Below the pieces are notes generated by a model. It did no database searches, was not told the DNA's origin, and saw only the letters and a program-made list of their open reading frames with translations. 64,000 bases of DNA from an uncultured Candidatus Actinomarina sp. GTDB lineage: Bacteria > Actinomycetota > Acidimicrobiia > Actinomarinales > Actinomarinaceae. Position 1 is the first letter of the stretch; every line of letters starts with the position of its first letter. The position numbers and the translations under genes were made by a program. Positions 2,411 through 26,265 of the stretch are shown here, piece by piece. Where the stretch lies: the NCBI GenBank assembly GCA_902593475.1, contig CACJIM010000005.1, positions 116 to 64,115 on the forward strand, in the 5' to 3' direction.

Positions 2411-3083
2411 TCTTTTTAGCTAACTCTCTTCTAGAGAAATAAATAATAACTGGAACTAGAAATACGTTAGGCATTGCCCAGTTCATCCATTCTTGTGGAA
2501 ACAATTCAATAGTACTGATAAATGCAGTAGTAGCAGCAATTGTTCCAGCAAGCATAAGACTTAAATGAGTGCTGGTTCTGTCGTAAAAATTCGGTTTATC
2601 TGTTTTTCTATATCTGTTGAGATCATATGCTGTGATATACATAGCCCCAATTCCAAAAATTATTGATATAGTATTCATTCCTTCAAACTGACCATAAAAA
2701 CCATAATTAATTAGTCCTGCTGCGTTCAGAAACAACAATACTCCGGCAATAAACATTAGCAATGTGAGAGCTTTATCCACATTCTCCCTAGCGCCAGTTC
2801 GGACTTTTGCTTGTCTATATCCAGCAAAAGCAAAATAAAATGAGAAAATTGCTATAGCAAACAAAAATGGTTGCACAACACCCATCATGCTGAGTGGTAT
2901 AGCGGTTACAAAAATAGTTGACATACCATAGACGTAGTACATTCCATACTTTTTATGACGCTTGTCGCCTTTTTTTAGAAATAATAGTAAATAAGCTGTT
3001 CCCAAAGACACAAACCCAGCCAAAATATGAATATATAATAGTGGTTTTTCTAAATCTGTGTAAACACCATCGATTAATGTCAT
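2403..3083 (-). CDS. Polytopic membrane protein (possibly DUF2306-like)
   Basis: 226 aa with about 6 hydrophobic spans. Divergent from the TetR gene. Family assignment is weak, from memory. Confidence 0.5.
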   Translation of the reverse strand: MTLIDGVYTDLEKPLLYIHILAGFVSLGTAYLLLFLKKGDKRHKKYGMYYVYGMSTIFVTAIPLSMMGVVQPFLFAIAIFSFYFAFAGYRQAKVRTGARENVDKALTLLMFIAGVLLFLNAAGLINYGFYGQFEGMNTISIIFGIGAMYITAYDLNRYRKTDKPNFYDRTSTHLSLMLAGTIAATTAFISTIELFPQEWMNWAMPNVFLVPVIIYFSRRELAKKTT

Positions 3084-3141
3084 GACATTAGTTCCTTTCT
3101 TAAAGCTTCAAAATATTTCATCATTATACTTCAAATCCTGT

Positions 3142-3166
3142 TATAATGTATACTTAGTCAACATTA
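3142..3166 (+). promoter_or_regulatory. Candidate -10 box (TATAAT 3142..3147) overlapped by inverted repeat TAATGT-n11-ACATTA (3144..3166); possible TetR operator
   Basis: Read directly in the 90-nt divergent intergenic region, 8 nt upstream of the TetR ATG. The arms are short and AT-rich, so this could be chance. Confidence 0.25.
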
Positions 3167-3173
3167 ATCTTAT

Positions 3174-3737
3174 ATGAGCTATCACAAAGAAAATCTGAAA
3201 GAGCAATTTGCTCAAATTGCATGGAACATCTGCAAAACAGAGTCTTGGCAGAAAGTTAATATACGAAGGGTTGCTCAGAAAGCTGGGGTTTCAAATAATG
3301 CCTTTTATAGACATTTTAAAGACAAAAATGATCTTAAAGCAGAATTGATGCGGAGGGGTTTCGAAACTCTTAATGAAGGCATGAGGGATGTAACTAATAA
3401 TTTCTCAAGTTACGGAGCTCATTACATAAGATTTGGATTGGACTACCCGCATATTTACGATTTGATGTTTGGGAATACGGATTTAGATATGTCTCTTTAT
3501 CCTGATTTAGAAGTTCTGTCCAATGGATCCTTTAGCGGGATAGTTGAAGGACTGAAAGCTTTTATGCCTGATGAGTCAGATAACGATATCATGATAAAAG
3601 CATACAATGTTTGGGCATCTGTTCATGGGATAGTGCTAATTTTGAGGCAATCGAAATGGGAAGGAAATCGAACTGAAACTCTTGAATGGATTGAGAATAA
3701 CTTAGAAGAATATTTAGAAATTACAACTTTTGGTTGA
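3174..3737 (+). CDS. TetR/AcrR-family transcriptional regulator
   Basis: N-terminal HTH 'VNIRRVAQKAGVSNNAFYRHFKDKNDLKAELM' and typical size of about 190 aa. Confidence 0.8.
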   Translation: MSYHKENLKEQFAQIAWNICKTESWQKVNIRRVAQKAGVSNNAFYRHFKDKNDLKAELMRRGFETLNEGMRDVTNNFSSYGAHYIRFGLDYPHIYDLMFGNTDLDMSLYPDLEVLSNGSFSGIVEGLKAFMPDESDNDIMIKAYNVWASVHGIVLILRQSKWEGNRTETLEWIENNLEEYLEITTFG

Positions 3738-3775
3738 AGGTTGCTATCAACTCATTCGAGGACTACCAAATATCC

Positions 3776-3934
3776 TCATATATCTAGTAAATAGAGTACT
3801 CCTACGCCAAGACCTATAGCTAAAAGAGTAAGCACAGCAACTTTGTATGTTTTAGGACTTTTCCAATCTACATTTTTAATATTGATTATCGTTGCAAATG
3901 CAGCAATTATTAGGCCTATGTCATAGAACTCCAT
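3776..3934 (-). CDS. Small (52 aa) two-helix membrane peptide, not in the ORF track
   Basis: My translation: MEFYDIGLIIAAFATIINIKNVDWKSPKTYKVAVLTLLAIGLGVGVLYLLDI*. It starts 18 nt downstream of the pntB stop on the same strand. No clear RBS. Confidence 0.3.
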   Translation of the reverse strand: MEFYDIGLIIAAFATIINIKNVDWKSPKTYKVAVLTLLAIGLGVGVLYLLDI

Positions 3935-3952
3935 ACGGGAACTTTAGTCTAT

Positions 3953-5287
3953 TTAAACTAATTCGAAGGATTTAATAATATTTTCTAAACCCTCTTTTGC
4001 ATCTGCAAAAAGCATTTTTGCATTGTCATTTATAAATAGTGGATTTGCAATACCTGCATAACCAGGCGACATAGATCTTTTTATCACGATGACTTGTTTT
4101 GCTAGGTCTACATCAAGTATTGGCATTCCATAAATTGGAGAGTCTTCATCAGTTCTAGCCAATGGATTTACAACATCATTTGCTCCAAGAACTATTACAA
4201 CATCCGTTGAGGAAAACTCAGAATTTATATCTTCTAAGGTAAACATATCTTCATAGTCAATATCTACCTCAGCTAAAAGTACGTTCATGTGTCCAGGCAT
4301 TCTTCCAGCAACTGGATGTATAGCAAACTTCACTTCAATGTTTTTATCTTTTAAGGTATTAGTTAATTCTTTTACAGCTGCCTGTGCTTGAGCTACTGCC
4401 ATTCCATAACCTGGAACAATAACTACAGATTCTGCATAGCTTAACTGGATTGCAACGTCTTCAGGGGAAGTGCTTATTGGTTCTTTATCATATTCATTGT
4501 TAATAGCTGTACCACCAAATCCACCCTTTAAAACATCTAAAAGTGTTCGATTCATTGCAGCACACATAAGGAGTGTGAGAATTATTCCAGATGCACCTAC
4601 TAAGGCACCAGCTACGATCAAAATAATACTATTTACAATAAACCCAGCAGACATCGCCGCAATTCCAGAAAGTGAATTTAAGAATGCTATGACAACTGGC
4701 ATGTCAGCTCCACCAATTACTGCAACTCTTATGATTCCAGCAATTAGTGCAAGAAGCATAAAGTATTCAAGGGATAATATTTCCATTTCTTCCCAAATTG
4801 CAGGTAATAAAATTAGAGGTGGTAAGAAAGCTGAAAAGATGTTGGCGATAGTTGTATTTACATTGTTTAACTTTCCACGAAGCTTTAGAACAGCAATGAT
4901 GCTTCCAGAGAAAGTAAACACACCAATAACCATAGAAAATATGGCTACAAAAAAATCAGACATAACTAACGAATTGTTTGATAACTCAACATATGCAATT
5001 GCTCCAGAAGCTCCTCCACCAAAGCCATTAAACAAACCAACTAGTTCTGGCATTTGTGTCATCTGAACACGTTTTGATATTAAAACTCCAAGAAGTCCTG
5101 AAACAACAATTGTGATATAAAAAGCAGAATCATATTTAGAAAAATCAAAATTGAATGCGCTAAAAACAGCTAATGCCATGGCCAACATAGCAAAAGTATT
5201 TGCTCTATGTGCCGTTGACGGTCTTCCAAAGAGTTTCAAGGCGAAGATAAAGAGTACAGATGAGACAAGTAGTATTATTTCAATCAT
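3953..5287 (-). CDS. pntB: NAD(P) transhydrogenase subunit beta
   Basis: Polytopic N-half plus soluble dIII half with 'PGYGMAVAQAQ', 'HPVAGRMPGHMNVLLAE' and 'GANDVVNP'. 8-nt overlap with pntAB. Confidence 0.93.
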   Translation of the reverse strand: MIEIILLVSSVLFIFALKLFGRPSTAHRANTFAMLAMALAVFSAFNFDFSKYDSAFYITIVVSGLLGVLISKRVQMTQMPELVGLFNGFGGGASGAIAYVELSNNSLVMSDFFVAIFSMVIGVFTFSGSIIAVLKLRGKLNNVNTTIANIFSAFLPPLILLPAIWEEMEILSLEYFMLLALIAGIIRVAVIGGADMPVVIAFLNSLSGIAAMSAGFIVNSIILIVAGALVGASGIILTLLMCAAMNRTLLDVLKGGFGGTAINNEYDKEPISTSPEDVAIQLSYAESVVIVPGYGMAVAQAQAAVKELTNTLKDKNIEVKFAIHPVAGRMPGHMNVLLAEVDIDYEDMFTLEDINSEFSSTDVVIVLGANDVVNPLARTDEDSPIYGMPILDVDLAKQVIVIKRSMSPGYAGIANPLFINDNAKMLFADAKEGLENIIKSFELV

Positions 5288-15234: not shown

Positions 15235-15836
15235 TGCAACTTCAATCACTAACTATCGAATTTATTCTTCTCCAAATTAGTGTCGCTTTTAGCCCAGGAC
15301 TAATTATTGCTTTGGTTGTTAATGAAGCAGTGCAAAAAGGAAGAAAAAATGCTCTTCAAGTTGCTTATGGTGCAGCAGCTGGTGCTATCGGAATAACCAT
15401 AATCACTGCTGCCGTCATTACTTACATCTTTTCATTAATTCCTGAGATACTCACTTTTATTTATATTTTTGGAATAATTTATATTGTTTATAAAGGAATC
15501 AAAACCATACAAGACAAAGGAGAGAGTCCTAAAGTCCTTGGCTCAGCATCTTTTTTGTCAGGATTTAAGATTAACCTTGCTAATCCAAAGATGTGGGTTT
15601 TCTATTTGTCTGTATTGCCTTTGTTTATAACAGATGAATCTAATATTTTTTCTTCTCTTATTTATCTTGGAATTGTGACAATATTTATTAATCTTTTTGC
15701 CGACATCTCATATGCTTTACTGAGTAGTTATTTATTCAATAATTCAACAACAAAAGTAAAAAGGTACATAAATATAATCAGCGGTGTCTGTTTGATTGGA
15801 ATTGGTATCTATTTATTCTTCAGTAGATTTATCTGA
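15234..15836 (+). CDS. LysE/RhtB-family amino-acid exporter
   Basis: 200 aa, about 6 TM, N-terminal 'FSPGLIIALVVNEAVQKGRKNAL..AYGAAAG' pattern, GTG start. Confidence 0.7.
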   Translation: MQLQSLTIEFILLQISVAFSPGLIIALVVNEAVQKGRKNALQVAYGAAAGAIGITIITAAVITYIFSLIPEILTFIYIFGIIYIVYKGIKTIQDKGESPKVLGSASFLSGFKINLANPKMWVFYLSVLPLFITDESNIFSSLIYLGIVTIFINLFADISYALLSSYLFNNSTTKVKRYINIISGVCLIGIGIYLFFSRFI

Positions 15837-16778
15837 ATCGTCAGAAGTTTTAGCTGAATCATCAGATTTCTCATCTTTAAAGAGTTCTGAAATTGCACCT
15901 ATGCTTCCAAGAGTGGCTGATAAATCCGCCGGTAAGAAAATCTTTGTAGCATTACCATCAGCGACTTTTTCAAGTGACTCTAAATACTTAATTGCAATTA
16001 GATCATTTGTTGGGTCACCTTTGTGTATTGCTGCAAAAACTTTTTCTATTGCTTCAGCTTCACCTTCAGCAATTGCAATTTTTTCATATTTTTGTGCATC
16101 AGCAACTTCCTTGAGAGCTTCTGCTTCACCAACTGCATCCAAAACTTGAGATTCTTTTCTTCCTTCTGCGGTAAGAATTGCTGCTCTCTTTTCACCTTCA
16201 GCTTCTGTAACTACAGCTCTTCTGTCTCTTTCAGCTTTCATAACTTTGTTCATAGCATCTTGAACATCTTGTGGTGGATCGATTCTCTGAATCTCAACTC
16301 TGACAACTCTTGTTCCCCATTTGTCAGTTGCTTCATCGAGAATAAGCTTTAGCTGAGTGTTAATAGTCTCTCTTGAGGTTAATGCAGCATCTAACTCTAA
16401 GTCACCAACAACATTTCTTAAGTTTGTTTGTGCTAATTTTGTAGCAGCTTGAATAAAGTCCCCAACATTATAAACAAGCTTTTTTGGATCAGTTGGTTCA
16501 TAGTAAATAATTGCATCAACTGTTATAGTTACATTGTCTTTTGTAATAACTTCTTGAGGAGGAACATCGATTACTTGCTCTCTCATATCTACAATGATTA
16601 TTCTCTCTAAACCGGGTATAACAATATTTAGTCCAGATTTTGCCTCTCTATGAAACTTACCTAATCTTTCAACAAGTCCAGTCTCGAAAGGTCTAATAAT
16701 TCTGAATATTCTAAATAATACAACCCCGAGTAGTGCAATTATGACTACCCATCTAACTATTCCAAATATAATTTCCAT
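15813..16778 (-). CDS. SPFH/band-7 (stomatin/prohibitin-like) membrane scaffold protein
   Basis: N-terminal TM, then the SPFH core ('LERIIIVDMREQVIDVPPQEVITKDNV', 'RVEIQRIDPP') and an Ala/Glu-rich coiled-coil tail. Confidence 0.9.
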   Translation of the reverse strand: MEIIFGIVRWVVIIALLGVVLFRIFRIIRPFETGLVERLGKFHREAKSGLNIVIPGLERIIIVDMREQVIDVPPQEVITKDNVTITVDAIIYYEPTDPKKLVYNVGDFIQAATKLAQTNLRNVVGDLELDAALTSRETINTQLKLILDEATDKWGTRVVRVEIQRIDPPQDVQDAMNKVMKAERDRRAVVTEAEGEKRAAILTAEGRKESQVLDAVGEAEALKEVADAQKYEKIAIAEGEAEAIEKVFAAIHKGDPTNDLIAIKYLESLEKVADGNATKIFLPADLSATLGSIGAISELFKDEKSDDSAKTSDDSDKSTEE

Positions 16779-16787
16779 ATTTTAAGT

Positions 16788-17222
16788 TTAACCTTCCTTC
16801 GTTTGTACTTCTAATTTAGTTCCATTTACACTTGTAACTTTTACCTCTGATCCTGCTGGAATTCTTTTATCAAGTGAAACTACTTGCCAGTCATCTCCAT
16901 AAACATGCTGCAGGGTTGATTCATACACATCCAACTCTTCTGTTGTAACAAAAGTCATGCCTATATATTTATTTGCTCCTTCAGTAAAGCTTGTACTTGT
17001 TTTCTTATCTTTGTTTCTGGGTCCAAAAACTTTTACTGATAAATACACCCCAACTAGGCTAAACACAATAAACGTAGAAAGCTGAATATTTTGACTATCT
17101 GTGAATAAAGAAGCTATCCCAGCGAAAAAAGATCCTATGGCAAAAGGAAGTATAAAAAATGTTGGAACTAAGAGTTCTGCCAATAATAGAACGGCTGCTG
17201 CAATAAACCAGATTTGTGTCAT
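16788..17222 (-). CDS. NfeD-family membrane protein (stomatin operon partner)
   Basis: 144 aa: 3 TM plus a C-terminal OB-like beta domain ('WQVVSLDKRIPAGSEVKVTSVNGTKLEV'). Classic NfeD-SPFH gene pair. Confidence 0.8.
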   Translation of the reverse strand: MTQIWFIAAAVLLLAELLVPTFFILPFAIGSFFAGIASLFTDSQNIQLSTFIVFSLVGVYLSVKVFGPRNKDKKTSTSFTEGANKYIGMTFVTTEELDVYESTLQHVYGDDWQVVSLDKRIPAGSEVKVTSVNGTKLEVQTKEG

Positions 17223-17231
17223 AATGACAAT

Positions 17232-17600
17232 CTAATTATCTTGATCTTCCTTTTCAAGCTGTTCTTGCTCAAACCTGTTAAGAGCTAATAAAAACATTAC
17301 AAAAAGAATTCCAGAACCAACTAAGAAAGTTAATGGAATAATTCTTATTTCGAATGCATTTAAACCATCTATGTTTGCTGGAGCTGGGCCACGTGGAGCA
17401 TAAAGGATGAAGAAAATTGAATTAATAACTCCCCAGCCAAATATTGCAGCTCCAGTGATTAAAAAACCTAATCTCTTTCCAACATTTGTAGCGTTTAACA
17501 AAAAAGTAGATCCAGCAAATGTGATTATCGAACCTATGAACATGAGTATTCCAGTAACTAATAAGTTAGAGGACAAAAGTGATCTCATTATTTCACGCAT
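17232..17600 (-). CDS. Small polytopic membrane protein, last gene of the Rieske/cyt b cluster
   Basis: 122 aa, about 3 TM, 8-nt overlap with the cytochrome c gene. No family motif. Confidence 0.55.
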   Translation of the reverse strand: MREIMRSLLSSNLLVTGILMFIGSIITFAGSTFLLNATNVGKRLGFLITGAAIFGWGVINSIFFILYAPRGPAPANIDGLNAFEIRIIPLTFLVGSGILFVMFLLALNRFEQEQLEKEDQDN

Positions 17601-19017
17601 CAGGTGTCATTCCTCTCAAATAATCAATAATTAGCTCAATATCAGATTGAGGAAGAACAGCTCCAAAACCTGGCATTTTTCCTCCACCAACACCGTTGAC
17701 TCCATACGCTTTACCATTTACAGAACCTTTAACAATAAAATCTATCAAGTCTTCCCTCTGCTTAAACTGGATATTGGCTCTACCTGCTCTTAGTGCAGGT
17801 CCCAAACCACCAGATGCTATCTCTTTAGTATATGCTACACCAGCAGAATAACCTGCTGTATGACATCTTGCACAGTAAGCGTTAAATAATCCAACTGCTC
17901 TTTTAGCTTTTTCTAGATCTCCATCAAAAGTTGAATCAGCAATTTCATCGAATGAAACTTCCCAAAGTTTTTCTTCCAATGCTTTTTCAAGAAATGCTAA
18001 ACCAGTTTCAGCCTCTTTGATAAATTTATCGTATCCCTCTGCAACAATTGTTATGTTGATTAATTCGGATTCAAGTTGTGATAAGTAACCGCTTGCAACA
18101 GATTTGTCTTTTCTTCCAGGGATAGATTCTTCGTTATCTGGGTCTAAATTTAATATAGAAGTTCCCAAAACTTCAGAAACGGTACTGCTGTAAGCTGATA
18201 ACTCTGTTTCAGTAGAGTCACTTAAACCGTCTTCATCTGTATCAATTCCACCTTCTTTGGAAAGTAGTGCTGAAACATCTTCTACTGCTTTTTGAACAAC
18301 AGGTAATTTTCCTGGTGCGTCTTTTACGCTTTGAATTAATTCTTTTTGCCTTGCAATTTCATTCTCAACTAATAGCTCAGATGTATCGAGTCTTGATAAT
18401 GAGCTATTGATATTCATTTCAATAGTTTGTAGCTCTTCTGATTGTGATATTTGAAAGTGATGCATGTACTCAATCAAGTCATCCAATTGTCCATCATTCA
18501 TTGGACCACCACCTTCTAATCCCCATGCAGGCATTGGTGAGTTTGCACGTCCATAAATTAACCAATAACGAACTTCTTCATCATCATATCTATAGAAAAC
18601 ATTGTTTATTGCAGGAGCAGTCCATGTAACATTTATTCCACTTCTCTTTTCAACATATGAAGCTGCACCACCAGATCCGTCAACACCATGGCAGTTACCA
18701 CATCCGAATTCTTCATATAGATGTTCTCCTCTTTCTACAGATACCTCATCAAATTCTTCTACAAAACCTTCTTGTCTTTCTTGTTCTCCAAGGTAATAAA
18801 GAGGAATCATGATAGTTAAAAGTGAAGCAATTAAAACTGCAACAGTTAGAGTTCTATCAAGTGTTTTTGTTTCTAAATCATCATCATTTCGATATTTTGA
18901 CAAGTTTGGTGCATAATCAGAGACTTTACCTGAGCCTCTAAAGCCTGCAGCAGTAAAAAATGCTAGAGCAGCAATTATCCCTAAAGCAATTAATGTAATT
19001 GAAAGTGAACTTGTCAT
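17593..19017 (-). CDS. Membrane-anchored diheme cytochrome c (QcrC-like) with long inter-domain insertion
   Basis: Two CxxCH motifs ('CGNCH', 'CARCH') with downstream Met-ligand motifs ('SPMPAWG', 'GKMPGFG'). Two N-terminal TM helices. Confidence 0.88.
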   Translation of the reverse strand: MTSSLSITLIALGIIAALAFFTAAGFRGSGKVSDYAPNLSKYRNDDDLETKTLDRTLTVAVLIASLLTIMIPLYYLGEQERQEGFVEEFDEVSVERGEHLYEEFGCGNCHGVDGSGGAASYVEKRSGINVTWTAPAINNVFYRYDDEEVRYWLIYGRANSPMPAWGLEGGGPMNDGQLDDLIEYMHHFQISQSEELQTIEMNINSSLSRLDTSELLVENEIARQKELIQSVKDAPGKLPVVQKAVEDVSALLSKEGGIDTDEDGLSDSTETELSAYSSTVSEVLGTSILNLDPDNEESIPGRKDKSVASGYLSQLESELINITIVAEGYDKFIKEAETGLAFLEKALEEKLWEVSFDEIADSTFDGDLEKAKRAVGLFNAYCARCHTAGYSAGVAYTKEIASGGLGPALRAGRANIQFKQREDLIDFIVKGSVNGKAYGVNGVGGGKMPGFGAVLPQSDIELIIDYLRGMTPDA

Positions 19018-19018
19018 A

Positions 19019-19882
19019 CTATTCCTCTGTAGTTAGAGCTATACAAGATAAACCTTGGGGATACTTCACTGACATACCTGGTGCTCGAGGTGATTCAATA
19101 ATTGTACCCGTGTCAATAACAAGTCTTCCATTTACATTGGCGACATTAAACCTATCAAGATTTCTTGGAGCTGGACCTGCAAAATATTCACCAACCATAT
19201 TATATTTTGAACCATGGCAAGGACATTCAAATCCTTGTGATGAGTTACACCATGGAACCCTACAGCCTAAGTGAACACATCTTTGATAAACAGCTACTAA
19301 ACCATCAGTAATTGTGGAGCCCGTCGCAAACTGAGAATTTGCCGCCGCAGCCGCGTCCAATGGAAGCACATAAGCTCTTGCTGCTGGAATAAAAGCTGGA
19401 ATAACGGAACCATCAGCTTGAAATATTTGACTCTTTATATCTTCAATCGGACCTGCATCAACTTTAGATCCAAAACCTCCAGAAACTTTTGGCCAAAAAA
19501 ATCCTAGCCATGCAATTGCTTGAATACCTGCAAAAGCACCGAATGAAATTCTTAGAGCTTTTGTTAAAAACTGTCTTCTAGTTATTCCTGCTTCCTCTTC
19601 GGAGATCTCTTCATAAATAACTTTTTCTTCAAGTTTTACAGCACCATCTGATTCAACAACTGGTTCATCAATTTCTTCAACAGTTGCTTCAGTTTCGCCT
19701 TTTGGCATCTCTGGTTCTAAAAAGTTGGTTTGAGATTTATCCTCTTTTAGAGCTTTTTTATCAAGATTTTTTTTCCAATTAAAACTTTTTGGACCTCTAC
19801 CAGTGACAATAACTACGATACCAACAATGCCTAAAAACCCAACCAAAGCAAAGGCTGCAAAAGATAATTCAACTATGCTCAT
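19019..19882 (-). CDS. Rieske [2Fe-2S] subunit of a quinol:cytochrome c oxidoreductase
   Basis: 'CVHLGCRV' plus 'CPCHGSKY' boxes. Internal twin-arginine motif 'TRRQFLTKAL' before TM2. I moved the start to Met at 19882, which gives an ATGA overlap with the upstream stop; the track start is 19897. Confidence 0.9.
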   Translation of the reverse strand: MSIVELSFAAFALVGFLGIVGIVVIVTGRGPKSFNWKKNLDKKALKEDKSQTNFLEPEMPKGETEATVEEIDEPVVESDGAVKLEEKVIYEEISEEEAGITRRQFLTKALRISFGAFAGIQAIAWLGFFWPKVSGGFGSKVDAGPIEDIKSQIFQADGSVIPAFIPAARAYVLPLDAAAAANSQFATGSTITDGLVAVYQRCVHLGCRVPWCNSSQGFECPCHGSKYNMVGEYFAGPAPRNLDRFNVANVNGRLVIDTGTIIESPRAPGMSVKYPQGLSCIALTTEE

Positions 19883-20685
19883 TCGAAATGAATCCAATCA
19901 AGCAAATCATCAAACCATATTCCATCAATCCAAGGATAAGTCCAGTTCCAGCCAGGACCTCTAAAAAGTACTCCAATAATAGTAAGTACACCAGCGCCAG
20001 CTAAGAAAAAGGTATAGAACATAATTGCAAATTTTCTTTTAGAAGGATGTGTTTCTGGGTTTCTGTCTATGTATGGGAAAGCCATCCATAGAACGACACC
20101 TAATACTAAAGGAATCATAACTCCGGCAATTTGAGGATCCCAATATGACAATAATTCCTGCAAGCCCAAAAAATACCAAGGTGCTTTTGCAGGGTTAGGT
20201 GTTACGTTTGGATTTGCTTCTTCAAGAAGAGGTGCTTGCAATATTGCTGATAGAAAAATTAAAAAAGCTGTCATTGCCATCAATGAAACAAATTCTGGAA
20301 GCATCAAATGCGGCCAAGTGTTAACTTTATCAACCGGCTCAGAAACTGATTTTTGAATTGGTTTTGCTTTTACAACAGTTAACAATCGTTGAGTTACCTT
20401 TACTTCAGGTGCAAAATCAACTTCTTCAGGAGTATCAGGTTCGGGAGCTTTTGCTGCTGGAGCTGGAGTCTCTGCTGCTGGAGCTGGAGTCTCTGCTGCT
20501 GGAGCTGGAGTCTCTGCTGCTGGAGCTGGAGTCTCATCAATAGTTTTTACCTCTGGCTCTTTAGAGATAACTGTTGGATCTGATTCACCTTTCATTTCAG
20601 CTAAAGCTTGTTCAACACTGATGCCCAAAGCTTTTGCTCTTGCCTCCGCAGATCTCTGCAACAAATGTTCTGGAATATCTACCAT
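19879..20685 (-). CDS. Cytochrome b C-terminal half (subunit IV-like) with N-terminal 'RSAEARA' module and (ETPAPAA)4 linker
   Basis: The C-terminal ~160 aa carry 3 TM and a Qo-loop box 'KAPWYFLGLQELL' at the PEWY position. The N-terminus is 'MVDIPEHLLQRSAEARAKALGISVEQALAEM'. Confidence 0.85.
   Translation of the reverse strand: MVDIPEHLLQRSAEARAKALGISVEQALAEMKGESDPTVISKEPEVKTIDETPAPAAETPAPAAETPAPAAETPAPAAKAPEPDTPEEVDFAPEVKVTQRLLTVVKAKPIQKSVSEPVDKVNTWPHLMLPEFVSLMAMTAFLIFLSAILQAPLLEEANPNVTPNPAKAPWYFLGLQELLSYWDPQIAGVMIPLVLGVVLWMAFPYIDRNPETHPSKRKFAIMFYTFFLAGAGVLTIIGVLFRGPGWNWTYPWIDGIWFDDLLDWIHFE
20453..20536 (-). repeat. Perfect 21-bp in-frame tandem repeat x4 (encodes ETPAPAA x4)
   Basis: The plus-strand unit gctgctggagctggagtctct occurs at 20453, 20474, 20495 and 20516. 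The last copy has 1 mismatch. Confidence 0.95.
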
Positions 20686-20691
20686 AAGTCT

Positions 20692-21465
20692 CTACAAAGG
20701 TCCTGAAATTCCGCCATCTTTTCTAACTCTCCAGAAATGGACAGCCATAAAGATAACAATAATAAATGGTAAGAAAAGTACATGAAGAACATAAAATCTT
20801 AACAGTGTAGCTGTAGTTGCCTCAAGTCCGGCAAACAATCCGAATTTGGCCTGAGCTCCAATAACGGGTGTGTAGCCAGCCATATTACCTCCAACAGTAA
20901 CAGCCCATATAGCCAGCTGGTCCCAGGGAAGAAGGTAGCCTGTAAATGACAACAATAGAGTTAGCAAAAGTAAAATTACTCCTATGACCCAGTTGAACTC
21001 TCTCGGTGCTTTATATGCTCCGTGATAAAAGACTCTAGACATATGAAGGAATACAACTAAAACCATAAGGTGTGCACCCCATCTATGCATATTTCTAACA
21101 AGCGAACCAAATGCGATACTGGTTTGTAAGGTCTGAATATCAACATATGCAAGTTCAGTTGGACGGAAATAAAACATTAGCCAAATCCCTGTAATTGTTA
21201 AGACGATGAAAAGAAAGAAGCTCAATCCACCCAGGCATAGAGTGTAAGATAGCCTAACGCCGTGTCTTTTAACTTTTACTGGATGGAGGTGGTACAAAAC
21301 ATTATTCATAACAACATACGACCTGTTTCTAGGACTATCTACATAACCTTTTCTAAAAGGAGATCCTGGTCGGAAAATACTGGACATTAATTTTCCACCT
21401 CTGAAACTATCACTAGCAGTAGCTCTTGCCTCTTTAATCCTGTCTCGAAGGGATAATTTTTGCAT
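20692..21465 (-). CDS. b6-type cytochrome b (four-helix N-terminal half)
   Basis: Heme-ligand pairs 'MHRWGAHLMVLVVFLH' (H-x13-H) and 'LHVLFLPFIIVIFMAVH' (H-x14-H). 'TLCLGG' sits at the position of the b6 'YCLGG' heme-ci cysteine. Confidence 0.9.
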   Translation of the reverse strand: MQKLSLRDRIKEARATASDSFRGGKLMSSIFRPGSPFRKGYVDSPRNRSYVVMNNVLYHLHPVKVKRHGVRLSYTLCLGGLSFFLFIVLTITGIWLMFYFRPTELAYVDIQTLQTSIAFGSLVRNMHRWGAHLMVLVVFLHMSRVFYHGAYKAPREFNWVIGVILLLLTLLLSFTGYLLPWDQLAIWAVTVGGNMAGYTPVIGAQAKFGLFAGLEATTATLLRFYVLHVLFLPFIIVIFMAVHFWRVRKDGGISGPL

Positions 21466-21474
21466 TATATAATT

Positions 21475-21921
21475 CTAAAGCCTTCCATATATATATCCGT
21501 GTCTGTCGTTTCTCTCACCTGAATCCTCATCCCACGGAGCTTTGTATACCCCGTTTTGAACAGCTTGATCTGCTAATGAGCCAGCAAACTTTCCGAGAGA
21601 AATTACTCCTGTTGGGCATCTATCTACACACAATGCACATCTAGTACAAGCTTCCTCATCCACGACAAAAAATCCTGGGGCTTCAGATTCATCTGGGGCC
21701 TCAACATTTATTGAGTCGTCAATTGCATCAACAGACAAATAATGAATACATTTCCAAGGACATATATCAACACACCCTTCACATAAAATACACTCTGCTT
21801 CATCTATATGTAAAAATTGTTTTGGACGGACACGAGAAGTAACTTTTTCTGTATCAACCATTGCAAGATTGTACTTCTTTTCAAACTCTGGCATCTCTAT
21901 TAAGACTTCTGATTTAGGCAT
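21475..21921 (-). CDS. 2x[4Fe-4S] ferredoxin-domain protein encoded inside the Rieske/cyt b operon
   Basis: 'CILCEGCVDICP' and 'CTRCALCVDRCP'. No TM segment. 8-nt overlap with the upstream gene and 9 nt before cyt b. Confidence 0.85.
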   Translation of the reverse strand: MPKSEVLIEMPEFEKKYNLAMVDTEKVTSRVRPKQFLHIDEAECILCEGCVDICPWKCIHYLSVDAIDDSINVEAPDESEAPGFFVVDEEACTRCALCVDRCPTGVISLGKFAGSLADQAVQNGVYKAPWDEDSGERNDRHGYIYGRL

Positions 21922-22507
21922 CTTGCTCCACCCTTACGACCTCTTTGCCGTAATCAGAAATTCTTGATTTAGAACTTTCTATTTTGTTATTTACGTCTTG
22001 AATTAAGTATGCGACAACCAAACCTGCGATTAAAAAGTTAGTTGAAATACCTAACTGTATGATGTCTTTTAACGCAGCAAGGCTTAGGCCAATTTCATTA
22101 TTTAAAAATAGTATTGGTGGAAACTGTATAAACTCTCTTTGACCTGTCCACTCTAAAGGTCCTTGTGCTAGGTTCAACCACTCAGATGGAACGATGCCTA
22201 AGAGAATTGACATTTCGATCCATGTTAGAAATGCGAAATAAGTAGCTTTTGCCCAAGTTAATTCCTTCTGATTCCATACCACCAGTACTAAACCAAGCAA
22301 AAGAATTTGACTAGCACCAAATGCTATAAGCTGACCAATAGATTGTGGTAACCACCCTCGTGGAATCCAGTTAAAATAATTTACTACTTCACCTTCAGAA
22401 AGACCAGCAAAATGAGCAATGATAACTCCAATGGTCATACCACCGAGCCCTGAAACAATTGAAACTAAACCTATTCTGTATCTAAATTTATAAATTGTAT
22501 AAATCAA
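21914..22507 (-). CDS. Polytopic membrane protein, first gene of the Rieske/cyt b operon
   Basis: 197 aa, about 4-5 TM. No family motif recognised. Confidence 0.55.
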   Translation of the reverse strand: MIYTIYKFRYRIGLVSIVSGLGGMTIGVIIAHFAGLSEGEVVNYFNWIPRGWLPQSIGQLIAFGASQILLLGLVLVVWNQKELTWAKATYFAFLTWIEMSILLGIVPSEWLNLAQGPLEWTGQREFIQFPPILFLNNEIGLSLAALKDIIQLGISTNFLIAGLVVAYLIQDVNNKIESSKSRISDYGKEVVRVEQDA

Positions 22508-22642
22508 ATTTCCTCAAACCTTACCTATATATAATATCGTAAGTTTGGATAAAAATATAAATTGAATTATTATCTTTTTTAAAAAATTTTCGTCAACACC
22601 AAGCTACATTTTTCCAATATAATAGTAAAGTCATATTGAATA

Positions 22643-24046
22643 TTGGCTAAATTGATGAAAATAAAGTTGTTTCCAAAAAACGAACAAGAACTTTCAAAAC
22701 TCTTTGTTTTGATTTTTCCACTTACCTTATTGCTATCACTTACTATTTCATTTTTAAAAAATGCGTACTTTACTTTTGCAAACCTTCTACCAAACAACTC
22801 AGTTTTTAACTATGGATTCCTAGACAGGCTCGACACACAGGCAGCGTTAGGTTTAGTTTTCGGTGCGTCACTTTGTTTGAGCTTTTCATATTTATTTTCA
22901 AAATCACTAGGTAGATCAATGGTATTATTTCCGCTTGTATTTTTAACTTTACTAGGTGTTGTTGGGACTGAATTTTTAGACATACTTGTAAACTTCTTTT
23001 TTCAAAACACAGCATACGATTTAGGCAATAGTTCCCTGCTCATTCTTTTAAAAATTCTGGTTGTATTTGGGTTATTTGGACTTGCCACTCTAAACCTACT
23101 TGCTAAAAAAGAAGCCTCAATTTTTGCAAGTGCACAATTTATATATGGTGCGGTAGTCTTTTACTTAATTTCATTGTTTATTGTTAGAGCAGAATTAAAT
23201 GTTTTTTCAGACATATTTTTGGTTAACTCTTTATATACAGGTACACATATATATGTTGGTGTTGCTTTCATATATATGGCAATAGTTCATTTTTTAATGA
23301 CTAGACCACTCCAGGCAGTATTATTCAACAAAACCCTTTCATCTATTACATTTTGGGGTTTTTTGTTCCTATTGCCTTGGACAAATTTTAAATATTATTA
23401 TGGCTCGGTACTTCCAAATTGGATTGAAAATATATCTATCTATCTCTCAATGAGTCTTGTTGTTCCTTTGTTAGCTTTCCTAGTTAATTACATCAAAACA
23501 ATTCAAACTAAGGAAGTTGATGGAGTAGGATCACTAAATCTGCTTAACTTTTCAGTAATCCTTTTTTCTATAACAACAATTTTTCATATGATTTCAAGTT
23601 TTGAAAACCTTCTTCCAATTTTAGGGATTACAAATTTTGTTAATGTTATTACCTATGGGCTCATTGGGTCTCTTGTGCTAGCAACAATATCTTTAAGCTA
23701 TTATTTAATACCTAAGTTATATGGAAGAGAAGTTGCTTACTCTAGACTTGAAGACATTACTTTTTTTGGTTTCAAAATATCATATCTTTTATTGTTGATT
23801 AACAATACTGTATTGGGTGTTAACTCAGGTTATTCATGGAATGCGGGAGCAAATGCAGGAAACCCAACAATTTATGGAGAAGGGTATGGTATCGTCTGGA
23901 GTCTTATAAGTTTTAATTTTTCTTTAAATACTTTCATCTCTCTACTTTTACTTGGTAGTGGTTTTCTATATTTAATTTCTGTTTTACGAGCAATCTCATC
24001 TGGTTCAATAACAACTGTTGAAGAAATGGTTTATAGCAATGATTGA
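22643..24046 (+). CDS. CcoN-like (heme-copper oxidase subunit I-like) polytopic membrane protein lacking the canonical metal-ligand histidines
   Basis: 467 aa with about 12 hydrophobic spans. 'LSYYLIPKLYGREVAYSRLEDITFFGF' and 'LSSITFWGFLFLLPW....LPNW' resemble CcoN helix VII and XI-XII motifs recalled from memory. Only 3 His in the whole protein. Followed by CcoO-like and cyt c genes. The track start is TTG; an ATG lies at 22655. Confidence 0.55.
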   Translation: MAKLMKIKLFPKNEQELSKLFVLIFPLTLLLSLTISFLKNAYFTFANLLPNNSVFNYGFLDRLDTQAALGLVFGASLCLSFSYLFSKSLGRSMVLFPLVFLTLLGVVGTEFLDILVNFFFQNTAYDLGNSSLLILLKILVVFGLFGLATLNLLAKKEASIFASAQFIYGAVVFYLISLFIVRAELNVFSDIFLVNSLYTGTHIYVGVAFIYMAIVHFLMTRPLQAVLFNKTLSSITFWGFLFLLPWTNFKYYYGSVLPNWIENISIYLSMSLVVPLLAFLVNYIKTIQTKEVDGVGSLNLLNFSVILFSITTIFHMISSFENLLPILGITNFVNVITYGLIGSLVLATISLSYYLIPKLYGREVAYSRLEDITFFGFKISYLLLLINNTVLGVNSGYSWNAGANAGNPTIYGEGYGIVWSLISFNFSLNTFISLLLLGSGFLYLISVLRAISSGSITTVEEMVYSND

Positions 24047-24135
24047 GGTGTTAGCAGAAATTTTTGAATTCATAGCTGGAGGCTGGTACACGAAGCGAAA
24101 AAAGAAACCTTTGGAAACTAATGAGGAGAACTCAA

Positions 24136-24933
24136 ATGAGTGATTTAGTAAATAAAGTAGCTGAATTATTAAATGCACCAGTTGATCTTGTTCAGAGGTC
24201 TGCAGAGGCAAGAGCGCAGGCATCAGGAAATTCTGTTGAAGAGGTATTAAGTTCTTGGGCTGGTGGCGAAAGTGTAGCTGCATCCGCTCCAAAAGAAGAA
24301 GCTCCTGTTGAAGAGGCTCCAAAAGAAGAAGCTCCTGTTGAAGAGGCTCCAGCTGCAGAAGTTGTAGAGGAGACTGTTGAGGAAGTAGTTGAAGAAACTG
24401 AAACCCAGGAGGTTGTTGAGGAAGTGGTTGAAGAAGTTGTTGAGCTAAAAAATGAAAGTGCTTTAAGTTTTATTTCAGGAGTTCTTTTAGTTGGTCTATT
24501 TACATTTCTATTCGCCTTTGTGATTCCAAAAAACCAAGCTACTGATATTGTTAGTGACTCTCTAAATAACAGCGTTAGTGCATCAAATGAAGTAATTAAG
24601 GGAGCTGAAGTATACGCAGAGTTGAATTGTCAATCCTGCCATACACAGAATGTTAGAACTCTCATTCCAGACACTCAAAATGGTAAAGTTCTAAAAAATA
24701 AATTTGCAAATGAAACGTTAATTAATAATGTTGGAAATATAAGACTTGGACCAGATCTTTCCACCAGCGCAACACGTGAACCAACAAACAATAGTCAATG
24801 GTTAACTCGATACCTATCAGACTCAACATCTGTCAATAGGGATATACCTCATCCAAGTTATGACTTTCTAGATGATGACGATTTGGAATATCTCGTAACT
24901 TATTTACTATCATTAGGAGAATCAAATGAGTGA
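24136..24933 (+). CDS. CcoO-like membrane-anchored monoheme cytochrome c with N-terminal 'RSAEARA' module
   Basis: 'CQSCHTQNVR', 'RLGPDLS' and 'PSYDFL' match FixO/CcoO hallmarks. Start moved to 24136 (MSDLVNKV..) by identity with the paralog start, with AGGAGAA 5-6 nt upstream in both. Confidence 0.75.
   Translation: MSDLVNKVAELLNAPVDLVQRSAEARAQASGNSVEEVLSSWAGGESVAASAPKEEAPVEEAPKEEAPVEEAPAAEVVEETVEEVVEETETQEVVEEVVEEVVELKNESALSFISGVLLVGLFTFLFAFVIPKNQATDIVSDSLNNSVSASNEVIKGAEVYAELNCQSCHTQNVRTLIPDTQNGKVLKNKFANETLINNVGNIRLGPDLSTSATREPTNNSQWLTRYLSDSTSVNRDIPHPSYDFLDDDDLEYLVTYLLSLGESNE
24286..24345 (+). repeat. Perfect 30-bp in-frame tandem repeat x2 (APKEEAPVEE x2)
   Basis: gctccaaaagaagaagctcctgttgaagag occurs at 24286..24315 and again at 24316..24345. 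Confidence 0.95.
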
Positions 24934-25858
24934 TTTAGTAAATAAAGTAGCAGAGATTTTAAACGCACCAGTTGACTTGGTGCAGCGTTCAGCGGAAGCA
25001 AGGGCTGCTGCCTCTGGAGTTTCAGTTGATGACGTTTTAAGTTCTTGGGCTGGTGGCGAAAGTGTAGCTGCATCCGCTCCAAAAGAAGAAGCTCCTGTTG
25101 AAGAGGCTCCAAAAGAAGAAGTTGTTGTTGAAGAAACAGTTGAAGAAGAAGCTCCTGTTGAAGAGGCTCCAAAAGAAGAAGTTGTTGTTGCAACTGCTGT
25201 AACACGACAAGTAACTAAATCTATTTCCTTTGCTAATGAAACAATGGGTATAAAAATTAATTCAGAAAACCTTCTTCCTAAGTGGCTCAACTTTAGTTTT
25301 ATTATCATTCCATTATTTATCCTCATAGGACTTATTAGCTCTTCTAACACACAAGAGTGCGGTGAAAGAGGGATGCTAAATGTTGATAGAAAGTCGCAAG
25401 AGGCTGTAAATTGTGATGGATCTCCCTATGAAGGTAGAGGTGTTGCTGCAACAAACACAGTAAATTATATTGCACTCGGTCAAGAAGTTTATGCTGGTGC
25501 TGCTGCGTGTGCTGGCTGTCACGGAGGTGGCGGTGGCGGTGGAGTTGGTCCAGCATTTACTGGTGGTGCGTTATATACCACTTTCCCAACATGTGCAGAC
25601 CACACTAAATGGATTCAACTCGGATCTGCAGGTTGGCAAGCTGAAGTAGGACCTACTTATGGTGCTGAAGATACAGTCTCTATTGGAGGAATGCCAGGAT
25701 TTCAAGGAAAGCTGACAGAAGATGAATTATATGCTGTTGTTGTTTTTGAAAGAGTAGTTTTTGGAGGCGGAAACACTGAAGAAGTACTTAGTGACTGTGG
25801 GCTTTTAGAAACTGAAGAGGAAGACGTAACCACAGAGGCTGTTAGCTCAACTCCTTAA
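24926..25858 (+). CDS. Membrane-anchored class I monoheme cytochrome c (CcoP-domain-like) with N-terminal 'RSAEARA' module
   Basis: 'CAGCHGGGGGGGVGPAF' plus 'GGMPGF' (Met ligand). TM segment 'FSFIIIPLFILIGLISS'. 8-nt overlap with the upstream gene. Confidence 0.85.
   Translation: MSDLVNKVAEILNAPVDLVQRSAEARAAASGVSVDDVLSSWAGGESVAASAPKEEAPVEEAPKEEVVVEETVEEEAPVEEAPKEEVVVATAVTRQVTKSISFANETMGIKINSENLLPKWLNFSFIIIPLFILIGLISSSNTQECGERGMLNVDRKSQEAVNCDGSPYEGRGVAATNTVNYIALGQEVYAGAAACAGCHGGGGGGGVGPAFTGGALYTTFPTCADHTKWIQLGSAGWQAEVGPTYGAEDTVSIGGMPGFQGKLTEDELYAVVVFERVVFGGGNTEEVLSDCGLLETEEEDVTTEAVSSTP
25083..25190 (+). repeat. 48-bp exact direct repeat at 60-bp period (25083..25130 and 25143..25190), in frame
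   Basis: aagaagaagctcctgttgaagaggctccaaaagaagaagttgttgttg occurs twice and encodes EEAPVEEAPKEEVVV. Confidence 0.95.
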
Positions 25859-26265
25859 TGAAAAAGTTCTCACTTCTATATATATTTGTTTTCTTTGATG
25901 GATTATCTGTTGCCTCAAGTTCACTATTTGGATTTTTCTTTCCAAAACTATTTTCTGATATATTTGGAGCAAATTTTCAAGGCAATGATTTAGTTTGGCT
26001 GAAATTTGTTCTTCTACCTGGAGTAGCAATAAATGTTCTTCTTATGTTTTTTGCATTAACTAAAAATAGGCCGGGTATTTTACTCTCAAATTTTCTAAGA
26101 GTTTTTACAACTGTAAGTTACTTATTTATGTGGGGAGAGGCAACAATTATTAGGTCTTTATTAAACCTTATTATTATCCATCATGTAATTGTTGTGACAA
26201 CTACTTTTGTTTTATATTTTAAAAAAGAAGATAACACAACCTCGGAGGAACTCAATTCAATTTAA
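25858..26265 (+). CDS. Small 4-TM membrane protein, translationally coupled to the cytochrome c gene
   Basis: TAATG stop/start overlap. 135 aa, hydrophobic. No family motif. Confidence 0.5.
   Translation: MKKFSLLYIFVFFDGLSVASSSLFGFFFPKLFSDIFGANFQGNDLVWLKFVLLPGVAINVLLMFFALTKNRPGILLSNFLRVFTTVSYLFMWGEATIIRSLLNLIIIHHVIVVTTTFVLYFKKEDNTTSEELNSI

Follow-up and report, generated by a model that had tools for sequence, protein, structure and literature searches.

The stretch of DNA analysed here, called the window in what follows, comprises 64,000 nucleotides of contig CACJIM010000005.1 (positions 116 to 64,115) from an uncultured Candidatus Actinomarina sp., and at positions 22,643 to 25,858 it carries three genes whose order resembles that of ccoN, ccoO and ccoP in the operons of cbb3-type cytochrome oxidases. 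The first of them encodes a homologue of the catalytic subunit CcoN in which the histidine ligands of the haems and of copper are lost from at least five of six positions, and this loss is found together with an intact reading frame under strong selection, with two cytochrome c partners and with a neighbouring Rieske/cytochrome b6 operon. On balance, this gene set probably encodes a redox-inert scaffold holding a chain of c-type haems that would run from complex III to a real oxidase, a reading built on sequence comparison. A first description of the three open reading frames (ORFs), made from the letters of the window without any database (the sequence-only reading), had already drawn attention to them, and all three are present as it described them.

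The relationship of the first protein to CcoN was examined with profile searches and with a structural model. Against the Pfam family COX1 (PF00115) the CcoN-like ORF gave an E-value of 6.7e-11 and 42.1 bits (gathering score 34.8), the match extending over residues 21-403 of the protein and positions 6-412 of the 436 in the profile, and against TIGR00780 (ccoN) it gave an E-value of 1.9e-9 and 37 bits, below the equivalog cut-off of 583. With phmmer against all PDB sequences, the only matches of the protein were CcoN chains of cbb3 oxidases, the best being 9g6b_A, 3mk7_A and 8smr_E. An AlphaFold2 model, built from an alignment of 27 sequences, displayed 12 long helices with a predicted local distance difference test score (pLDDT) of 86.8 and a predicted template modelling score (pTM) of 0.90. 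In Foldseek comparisons this model matched the CcoN subunits of Pseudomonas aeruginosa (8smr_E) and P. stutzeri (3mk7) with template modelling (TM) scores of 0.85-0.88 and root-mean-square deviations of 2.7-3.4 Å, and the A/B-type oxidases and nitric oxide reductases ranked below CcoN with TM scores of 0.7-0.8. Motifs of CcoN that take no part in ligation, namely YxxIPKxxGR, LPxW and R.E..Y.S, are also common to the CcoN-like protein and real CcoN. A chance resemblance to CcoN was rejected on the profile searches and the fold match. The 463-residue protein is a true homologue of CcoN and belongs to the haem-copper oxidase (HCO) superfamily by homology and by fold; the profile check that had been advised for this protein thus returned significant matches for subunit I, as well as for its FixO-type partner, and a model with the fold of CcoN.

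Despite this fold, the set of six histidines that marks an HCO subunit I is absent from the protein. It contains exactly three histidines, at residues 202, 216 and 315, the number that the sequence-only reading had given. In a HMMER alignment to P. stutzeri CcoN (3mk7_A), 'GPHHLHY' lies over 'NFKYYYG' and 'IGHVHAG' over 'VNVITYG', so that the replacement of the CuB pair HH by KY and of H.H in helix X by V.T, both proposed earlier from the sequence, is reproduced. The first replacement is K250-Y251 (23390..23395, plus strand), where P. stutzeri CcoN has the CuB ligands H257 and H258, and the second is V335-I-T337 (23645..23653, plus strand), in place of H345, which ligates haem b3, and H347, which ligates haem b; there is no histidine elsewhere in the helix bearing V335-I-T337. 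His202 was aligned by HMMER with the CuB ligand H207, and one of the six ligand positions may therefore still be a histidine in this strain. That position is a histidine in only 18 of 24 orthologues and L, I or R in the six others, the ortholog set being made of 23 Actinomarina single-cell and metagenome sequences (50-98% identity) and the window protein itself. Read across the protein, the six ligand columns hold D, G (or H202), K, Y, V (I) and T (Y). A MAFFT alignment with genuine C-family sequences led to the same outcome for the ligands, with minor shifts of register. Two further active-site residues (P. stutzeri numbering) have gone as well: the column of the cross-linked tyrosine Y251 is L in the window protein and never Tyr in the His-less clade described below, and the column of E323, which is E or Q in real C-type oxidases, is hydrophobic in the window protein.

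The same picture is obtained from the relatives. None of the 24 intact orthologues has the full histidine set, and distant Acidimicrobiia also lack the ligands, which answers the question, raised with the first description, of whether close relatives might have kept them. No column of histidine is invariant among the 24 sequences, in which 108 other columns are invariant, K250 and several tyrosines among them. In the His-less clade (33 sequences) no column of His, Met, Cys or Lys reaches 70%, which leaves no conserved position at which a haem or metal might be bound in a non-canonical way, and the equivalents of Tyr251 and Glu323 are hydrophobic. The relatives have A, G, S, N, Q, V or L where the six ligands would stand, and only two acidic residues, an Asp close to the N-terminus and a Glu in the C-terminal tail, are conserved throughout the family. 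From these alignments, the CcoN-like protein would be expected to bind neither haem nor copper, and it is very probably not an oxidase.

The integrity of the gene was assessed in the ortholog set. All 24 ORFs are intact, with lengths of 449-469 residues and 2-4 histidines each, and neither frameshifts nor stops were observed. Identities of 97-98% link the window protein to its counterparts on three Actinomarina contigs and in a mis-labelled metagenome-assembled genome (MAG), and hundreds of near-identical metagenome copies exist, for example one cluster of 853 members. The ratio of nonsynonymous to synonymous rates (dN/dS) was 0.05-0.09 for the CcoN-like gene (Nei-Gojobori, where dS is unsaturated). 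All eleven genes of the trio's operon and of the adjacent Rieske/b6 operon are constrained: against two relatives, dN/dS was 0.08 for the third-gene cytochrome c, 0.10-0.27 for the FixO-like gene, the upper values being due to its low-complexity linker, 0.03-0.04 for the 135-residue protein that follows and 0.005-0.03 for the core of the b6c complex. The nonsynonymous rate of the trio is several-fold higher than that of the b6c core, a pattern that fits a structural protein freed from the constraints of its cofactors and not a pseudogene. A pseudogene or an artefact was rejected on the intact ORFs and the low dN/dS, in agreement with the earlier view of the gene as conserved and not decaying. 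With its catalytic residues gone throughout the family, its ORF intact and its dN/dS much lower than 1, the protein is a pseudoenzyme under the working definition used here.

When 1.84 billion cluster representatives were searched exhaustively with phmmer, 119 matches were obtained, of which 55 were full-length. Most of the six histidines, or all of them, are missing from about 40 of these 55, and the complete set is present at every aligned ligand position in 11. A rough neighbour-joining tree separates three groups, namely the genuine C-family, a degenerate clade linked to alternative complex III (ACIII) and the His-less clade. The window protein falls in the last of these, on a long branch of low guanine-plus-cytosine (GC) content and together with high-GC sequences, two of which carry the NCBI name 'Acidimicrobiia bacterium'. 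These high-GC Acidimicrobiia relatives, at about 20% identity, are without the same ligands and, since they share both the loss and the gene cluster, the loss of the ligands appears to be ancient. The databases make no distinction, as IMG and NCBI label the His-less proteins (P0040, P0066-P0071, P0242, P0251 and others) 'cbb3-type cytochrome (c) oxidase subunit I'. Four other proteins (P0177, P0234, P0168 and P0210) are partially degenerate subunits I of the C-family; P0177 (locus L050, Opitutales) and P0234 have kept the three haem ligands and lost the CuB histidine pair. Such proteins could represent intermediate stages of evolution, or else enzymes whose active site is of another kind.

At the locus itself, the plus-strand operon is made of the genes for the CcoN-like protein, the FixO-like protein, a mono-haem cytochrome c and a 135-residue membrane protein, and it is divergent from the Rieske/b6 operon. 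The CcoN-like pseudo-oxidase with its 12-helix subunit I fold is encoded by 22655..24046 (plus strand). Its ORF has a mechanical TTG start at 22643, giving the 467 residues and about 12 transmembrane (TM) segments reported at first; the 12 helices are borne out by the model, and the start is probably the ATG at 22655, giving 463 residues, because database homologues are 462-463 residues long and begin with MKIK. The last two long helices are joined by the loop SGYSWNAGANAGNPTIYGEGYG (23825..23890, plus strand), which contains the invariant columns S395-G414 of the Actinomarina orthologues. Near-invariant in Actinomarina, this loop is still recognisable across the His-less Acidimicrobiia (family consensus 'GYxWxAGAxxGxxxxxGEGF') and is a candidate docking surface for the cytochrome domains.

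Both partners of the CcoN-like protein are predicted membrane-anchored mono-haem cytochromes c which have kept their CxxCH motif. The FixO/CcoO-like protein (24136..24933, plus strand) scored 33 bits against Pfam FixO (PF02433, gathering score 29.6) and 22 bits against TIGR00781, for which the equivalog cut-off of 200.65 was not reached. It carries the three hallmarks by which it had been recognised from sequence, CQSCH (24628-24642), RLGPDLS and PSYDFL, with the RxGPDL of the family thus retained, and it is laid out as an N-terminal cytoplasmic module, an acidic Pro/Glu linker, a TM helix and the haem domain. The third protein (24926..25858, plus strand; PF13442, PF00034) had been called a single CcoP-like class I haem c domain. 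It is indeed a single-haem class I cytochrome c, with 27.3 bits against PF13442 (gathering score 27), one CAGCH at 25508-25522 and GGMPGF at 25685-25702. With 14 bits against TIGR00782 (CcoP), for which the cut-off is 179.95, and with one CxxCH instead of two, it is not an orthologue of CcoP. The FixO-like gene shares 8 nt with the cytochrome c gene, which in turn overlaps the next ORF by ATGA, by which the 135-residue membrane protein (25858..26265, plus strand, with an ORF at the same position in orthologous loci) is translationally coupled to it. The translational organisation attributed to the whole trio consequently holds for its two cytochrome genes, and the intactness of the CcoN-like ORF holds as well, while a gap of 89 nt separates the CcoN-like from the FixO-like gene. 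Neither ccoQ nor ccoGHIS was found among the 35 window ORFs scanned with Pfam, a scan that left out small ORFs and the rest of the genome.

The divergent operon lies on the minus strand, beyond an intergenic region of 22508..22654 as delimited by the ORF coordinates, in which a promoter and terminator scan gave sites not above the number expected by chance. Its first gene encodes a 197-residue membrane protein (21914..22507), with homologues of 200 and 197 residues at the same position in the Acidimicrobiia loci L042 and L047. Next is a ferredoxin-like subunit with 2x[4Fe-4S] (21475..21921; Pfam Fer4 families), also conserved in L042 and L047, and then cytochrome b6, the N-terminal half of a split cytochrome b (20692..21465), identified by PF00033 (E = 4e-43). 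A subunit IV-like protein (19879..20685; PF00032), which represents the C-terminal half of cytochrome b, begins with an N-terminal module, 'IPEHLLQRSAEARAKALGISVEQAL', recognised by the module alignment. The Rieske [2Fe-2S] protein (19019..19897; PF00355, NF010001) has CVHLGC and CPCHGS, and the di-haem cytochrome c (17593..19017; PF13442 twice) has CGNCH and CARCH with a long insert between its haem domains. The last conserved gene encodes a 122-residue membrane protein (17232..17600), with a 120-residue homologue at the same position in L042. The Rieske/b6 complex is thus of a type with an iron-sulphur (ferredoxin-like) subunit, whose gene precedes that of b6, and in having this subunit it is unlike the canonical actinobacterial QcrCAB; the b6 protein scored 289.3 bits on NF040969 'cytb_ExtP', just under the cut-off of 290.

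The pairing of the two operons is conserved far beyond Actinomarina. In L042, a contig of 60% GC from Acidimicrobiia whose CcoN-like protein is about 20% identical to that of the window, the same divergent cluster of 10-11 genes is found gene for gene, and the synteny extends to the small membrane proteins and to the flanking genes for an S-adenosylmethionine hydroxide adenosyltransferase and a glycosyltransferase. In L047 and L048 the CcoN-like and FixO-like genes are naturally fused inside the same cluster (8001-9914 in L047, P0175). The divergent arrangement with the Rieske/b6 operon is therefore still seen where identity has fallen to about 20%. In L042 (3414-4043) and L047 (1826-2449) the Rieske/b6 operon is also flanked by a gene with Put_DNA-bind_N and CoA_binding domains, an architecture that we take to be that of the redox-sensing repressor Rex; in the window the cluster was not seen to have such a neighbour. 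An NfeD-like/SPFH (band 7) pair at 15813-17222 (minus strand) lies directly downstream of the window's Rieske/b6 operon, with which it could be co-transcribed, and does not occupy this place in L042.

A link of another kind between the two operons is given by a module of about 35 residues which opens the FixO-like protein, the third-gene cytochrome c and the subunit IV-like protein (24136-24285 and 24926-25075 on the plus strand, 20569-20685 on the minus strand, from the module alignment), with the pattern P-x-x-L-[VL]-x-R-S-A-E-A-[RK]-A-x-A-x-G-x-[ST]-[VI]-x-x-[VA]-L. It is followed by an acidic Pro/Glu-rich or an Ala/Pro-rich linker and then by a TM helix. Since it precedes the TM anchor in cytochromes of the periplasm and opens the subunit IV protein, it is placed in the cytoplasm, by analogy with the known topology of CcoO and PetD. 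The module had no significant match in Pfam or in the PDB. The high-GC cluster L042 has it on FixO, cytochrome c and subunit IV, duplicated in the last, and in an alignment it was missing from the ACIII-linked FixO proteins. Its presence on subunits of both operons is the best sign within the locus that their products would act together. At the nucleotide level, the module of the FixO-like gene with its linker (24132..24344) and that of the third-gene cytochrome c (24922..25134) form a direct repeat of 213 nt on the plus strand, the two copies being 86% identical and sharing an identical stretch of about 100 nt. In L025 the protein sequences of the two modules do not differ, from which concerted evolution of the two cytochrome modules is deduced.

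The FixO-like cytochrome of the window departs from its relatives in one further respect. The methionine that acts as sixth ligand in the motif xMPxY is replaced by histidine, giving 'IPHPSY' (24844-24861) in all Actinomarina orthologues and 'VPHPKY' in the related low-GC locus L044. The change was seen in the window, L010, L014, L025, L035 and L044, and methionine is retained in the high-GC L042, in the fusions and in the ACIII-linked homologues. A bis-His haem c is normally of low potential. The replacement suggests that the FixO haem of Actinomarinales is bis-His ligated and of lower potential, as a lineage-specific trait.

The second degenerate clade provides an independent genomic context. 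In L045, L049 and L050 the trio lies directly after ACIII genes on the same strand; ActB, ActC, ActD, ActE and two more genes are present in all three contigs, and an ActA-like multihaem gene is visible only in L049. In L045 the order is ACIII, His-less CcoN, FixO, cytochrome c, a small ORF, COX2, a genuine COX1, CtaA, CtaB and COX3; the trio genes overlap one another, COX2 has the CuA motif and the A-type COX1 has WFFGHPEVY, WGHH and HIHY. L053 is comparable, as a caa3-type COX2 and an A-type COX1 come directly after a His-less CcoN fused to a C-terminal cupredoxin (type 1 copper motif C..H..M; 2903-5047, P0221). Natural fusions of the His-less protein to a periplasmic electron carrier involve a cupredoxin in this one case and a FixO domain in several others. 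The member in L054 adjoins cytochrome c maturation genes, and a pair in L052 adjoins genes for complex I and multihaem cytochromes. Because its contexts are those of Rieske/b6, ACIII, A-type oxidase, complex I and maturation genes, the His-less protein has its place throughout among genes of the respiratory chain. Its neighbour is in most cases a quinol:cytochrome c oxidoreductase, and in some it stands between such an enzyme and an A-type oxidase.

Taken together, these observations are consistent with a CcoN-derived pseudo-oxidase that would have kept its 12-helix fold after losing all redox cofactors. Such a protein could serve as a membrane platform for two tethered mono-haem cytochromes c on the outer face of the membrane, and would dock them to the menaquinol:cytochrome c oxidoreductase formed by the Rieske protein, b6/subunit IV, the di-haem cytochrome c and the ferredoxin-like subunit. 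A fixed wire of c-type haems would then do the work of a soluble cytochrome c and carry electrons from complex III to a genuine terminal oxidase, which would most likely be of the aa3 type and encoded elsewhere. That the trio is a cytochrome scaffold attached to complex III is considered likely, and the chances that it feeds an A-type oxidase are judged about even. The physical association with the b6c complex, the direction of electron flow and the acceptor are what we infer from gene content and order. The sequence-only reading had speculated on an adaptor between the Rieske/b complex and a real oxidase, and this idea gains comparative support from the conserved Rieske/b6 pairing, from the ACIII clade and from the adjacency to oxidase genes in L045 and L053. 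A wider and more tentative proposal, to which we give somewhat less than even chances, is that a cbb3 relic was repurposed at least twice, or very anciently, as a 'cytochrome c bridge'. In obligate III-(pseudo-IV)-IV supercomplexes, such a bridge would connect A-type oxidases with quinol:cytochrome c oxidoreductases of two unrelated types, Rieske/b6 in Acidimicrobiia and ACIII in metagenome contigs and an Opitutales MAG.

Several observations weigh against the proposed scaffold between complex III and an oxidase. No HCO or A-type signature was found in the 64-kb window that could represent the terminal oxidase of Actinomarina, and a metagenome scan for the motif 'GHPEVYI[IV]ALPFFG' of an AT-rich actinobacterium returned only one unrelated contig of 52% GC. 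Most genomes of the sister order UBA5794 have coxABCD (PMC12008989), which supports an oxidase in Actinomarina only indirectly. No oxidase genes adjoin the clusters of the Acidimicrobiia type, and the link to an A-type oxidase comes from L045 and L053, which belong to other clades. The AlphaFold model is silent on whether the former haem pockets are filled. A low-potential FixO haem would be awkward for a carrier between the Rieske centre and an oxidase, and none of the explanations considered accounts for it well. Moreover, the FixO-like gene is apparently missing in three loci from single amplified genomes or MAGs, where one cytochrome gene follows that of the CcoN-like protein and joins the module to the third-gene haem domain (L022, 11374-12366; L024, 11374-12357; L029, 10186-11286). 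The most likely cause is a collapse of the assembly at the repeated 5' ends, or else a genuine recombination there; in L029 the cytochrome junction coincides with a run of N.

In a rival explanation, the trio is an additional electron-exit branch of the Rieske/b6 complex that feeds no oxidase, its cytochromes giving electrons to other periplasmic partners or taking them up from these. The bis-His FixO haem, with its low potential, might then be a safety valve, or the point at which electrons enter for a reverse or cyclic flow that involves the ferredoxin-like subunit. The clusters of the Acidimicrobiia type without adjacent oxidase genes, the lower potential suggested by the Met-to-His change in Actinomarinales, the conserved cytoplasmic 2x[4Fe-4S] subunit with the cytoplasmic N-terminal modules, and the L052 pair beside complex I and multihaem cytochrome genes all agree with such a branch. 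However, the His-less gene stands directly upstream of A-type oxidase genes in two independent contexts, the high-GC relatives have kept the Met ligand, and no gene for an alternative acceptor is conserved in the neighbourhood. This explanation is regarded as unlikely and is retained mainly because of the Met-to-His change.

The remaining alternatives concern the CcoN-like protein itself. Retention of the entire 12-helix fold with high model confidence, strong selection and the preserved non-ligand motifs of CcoN would also be expected of an ion-conducting or conformationally coupled module, for instance one that lets protons or sodium pass or that regulates the b6c complex, comparable to the NrfD/ActC-type subunits. 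Ion translocation in HCOs is nevertheless driven by haem-copper chemistry, which is gone here, and with a single Asp and a single Glu conserved throughout the family and a hydrophobic residue at the active-site Glu/Gln position, this role is quite improbable. Even less support can be given to a protein that is still catalytic and binds haem or metal through ligands other than histidine. Some HCO families have Met or Lys as an axial ligand of their low-spin haem (Murali et al. 2024, PMC11214002), and the invariance of K250 and several tyrosines within Actinomarina could be read in this way. On the other hand, the 70% level is reached by no candidate ligand column, the ligand positions of the relatives are taken by A, G, S, N, Q, V or L, and Tyr251 and Glu323 are lost, which makes this very improbable. 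The view that the gene is a pseudogene in decay, a degenerate copy peculiar to one strain or an artefact of sequencing has only the missing ligands in its favour and is hardly credible beside 24 intact ORFs out of 24 at 50-98% identity, the low dN/dS, the 853-member cluster, and a ligand loss and synteny common to relatives of about 20% identity.

Apart from the respiratory genes, the region at about 38000-64000 of the window has a GC content of 24-29% and encodes glycosyltransferases, a sugar aminotransferase, an AT3-SGNH acyltransferase, and asparagine synthase-like and O-antigen ligase-like proteins. It looks like a cell-envelope glycosylation island.

If the scaffold reading is true, this would be the first HCO subunit I family to persist with essentially no cofactor ligands. 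It would offer a natural experiment on an HCO fold without its chemistry, and on the wiring of complexes III and IV in bacteria without soluble cytochrome c. If the wider proposal of a cytochrome c bridge is true, calls of a 'cbb3 high-affinity oxidase' for the carrier groups, including the very abundant marine Actinomarina, would be wrong. The micro-oxic, high-affinity respiration inferred for Actinomarina, other Acidimicrobiia and the ACIII-linked lineages may then be an artefact, and the cbb3 label on His-less proteins would inflate the counts of high-affinity oxidases in marine and soil metagenomes. In a review of verrucomicrobial methanotrophs, ACIII-adjacent C-type genes were taken as a real cbb3 oxidase. 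The sequence-only reading knew of no description of such a pseudo-oxidase, and no earlier description of a His-less CcoN or of a cofactor-less HCO subunit I was found in the open full-text literature, a scope which leaves out older subscription papers and in which a mention may have gone unnoticed.

Among the closest known systems is the cbb3 oxidase CcoNOP (P. stutzeri, 3MK7/5DJQ), with which the trio shares the order of subunit I, FixO/CcoO and a further cytochrome c, the 12-helix fold, the non-ligand motifs, and the CxxCH and RxGPDL of CcoO. It differs from CcoNOP in that five of the six histidine positions are occupied by other residues, the cross-linked Tyr and the active-site Glu are gone, the third subunit is mono-haem whereas CcoP is di-haem, and the Met ligand of CcoO is His in Actinomarinales. 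The HCO families with altered sites (gNOR, NOD and sNOR) are likewise divergent members of the superfamily recognised from environmental sequence. In those families one ligand or the Tyr is changed and the haems and metal site are kept, in contrast to the five or all six non-His positions found here. gNOR was described as the first HCO family in which any active-site histidine is replaced, these histidines being completely conserved in all the others (Murali et al. 2024, PMC11214002). The keeping, under purifying selection, of a catalytic or redox fold for a structural or coupling role once its cofactor ligands have gone has parallels in the NrfD/ActC-like subunits and in the CuA-less subunit II of the bo3 quinol oxidase, although the fold is a different one.

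With regard to supercomplexes, the bc1-cbb3 assemblies of Rhodobacter capsulatus (6XKW) and P. aeruginosa (8SMR) also combine a C-family subunit I and anchored cytochromes c with a Rieske/cytochrome b complex, and their entries are the best structural matches of the CcoN-like model. Their CcoN is, however, an active oxidase and the electron sink. As the CcoN-like protein of the window would be unable to accept electrons, any association of it within a supercomplex would be purely architectural. To our knowledge, none of the described supercomplexes has a cofactor-less scaffold with an HCO fold. Fixed, membrane-tethered relays of c-type haems, in place of a soluble cytochrome c between a quinol-oxidising module and an A-type oxidase, are a feature of the ACIII-aa3 supercomplex of Flavobacterium johnsoniae (Sun et al. 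2018, as cited in PMC8498564) and of the actinobacterial bcc-aa3 supercomplexes (e.g. 7QHM), and a comparable relay is predicted here from the genes. In L045 the trio lies between the ACIII and the aa3 genes.

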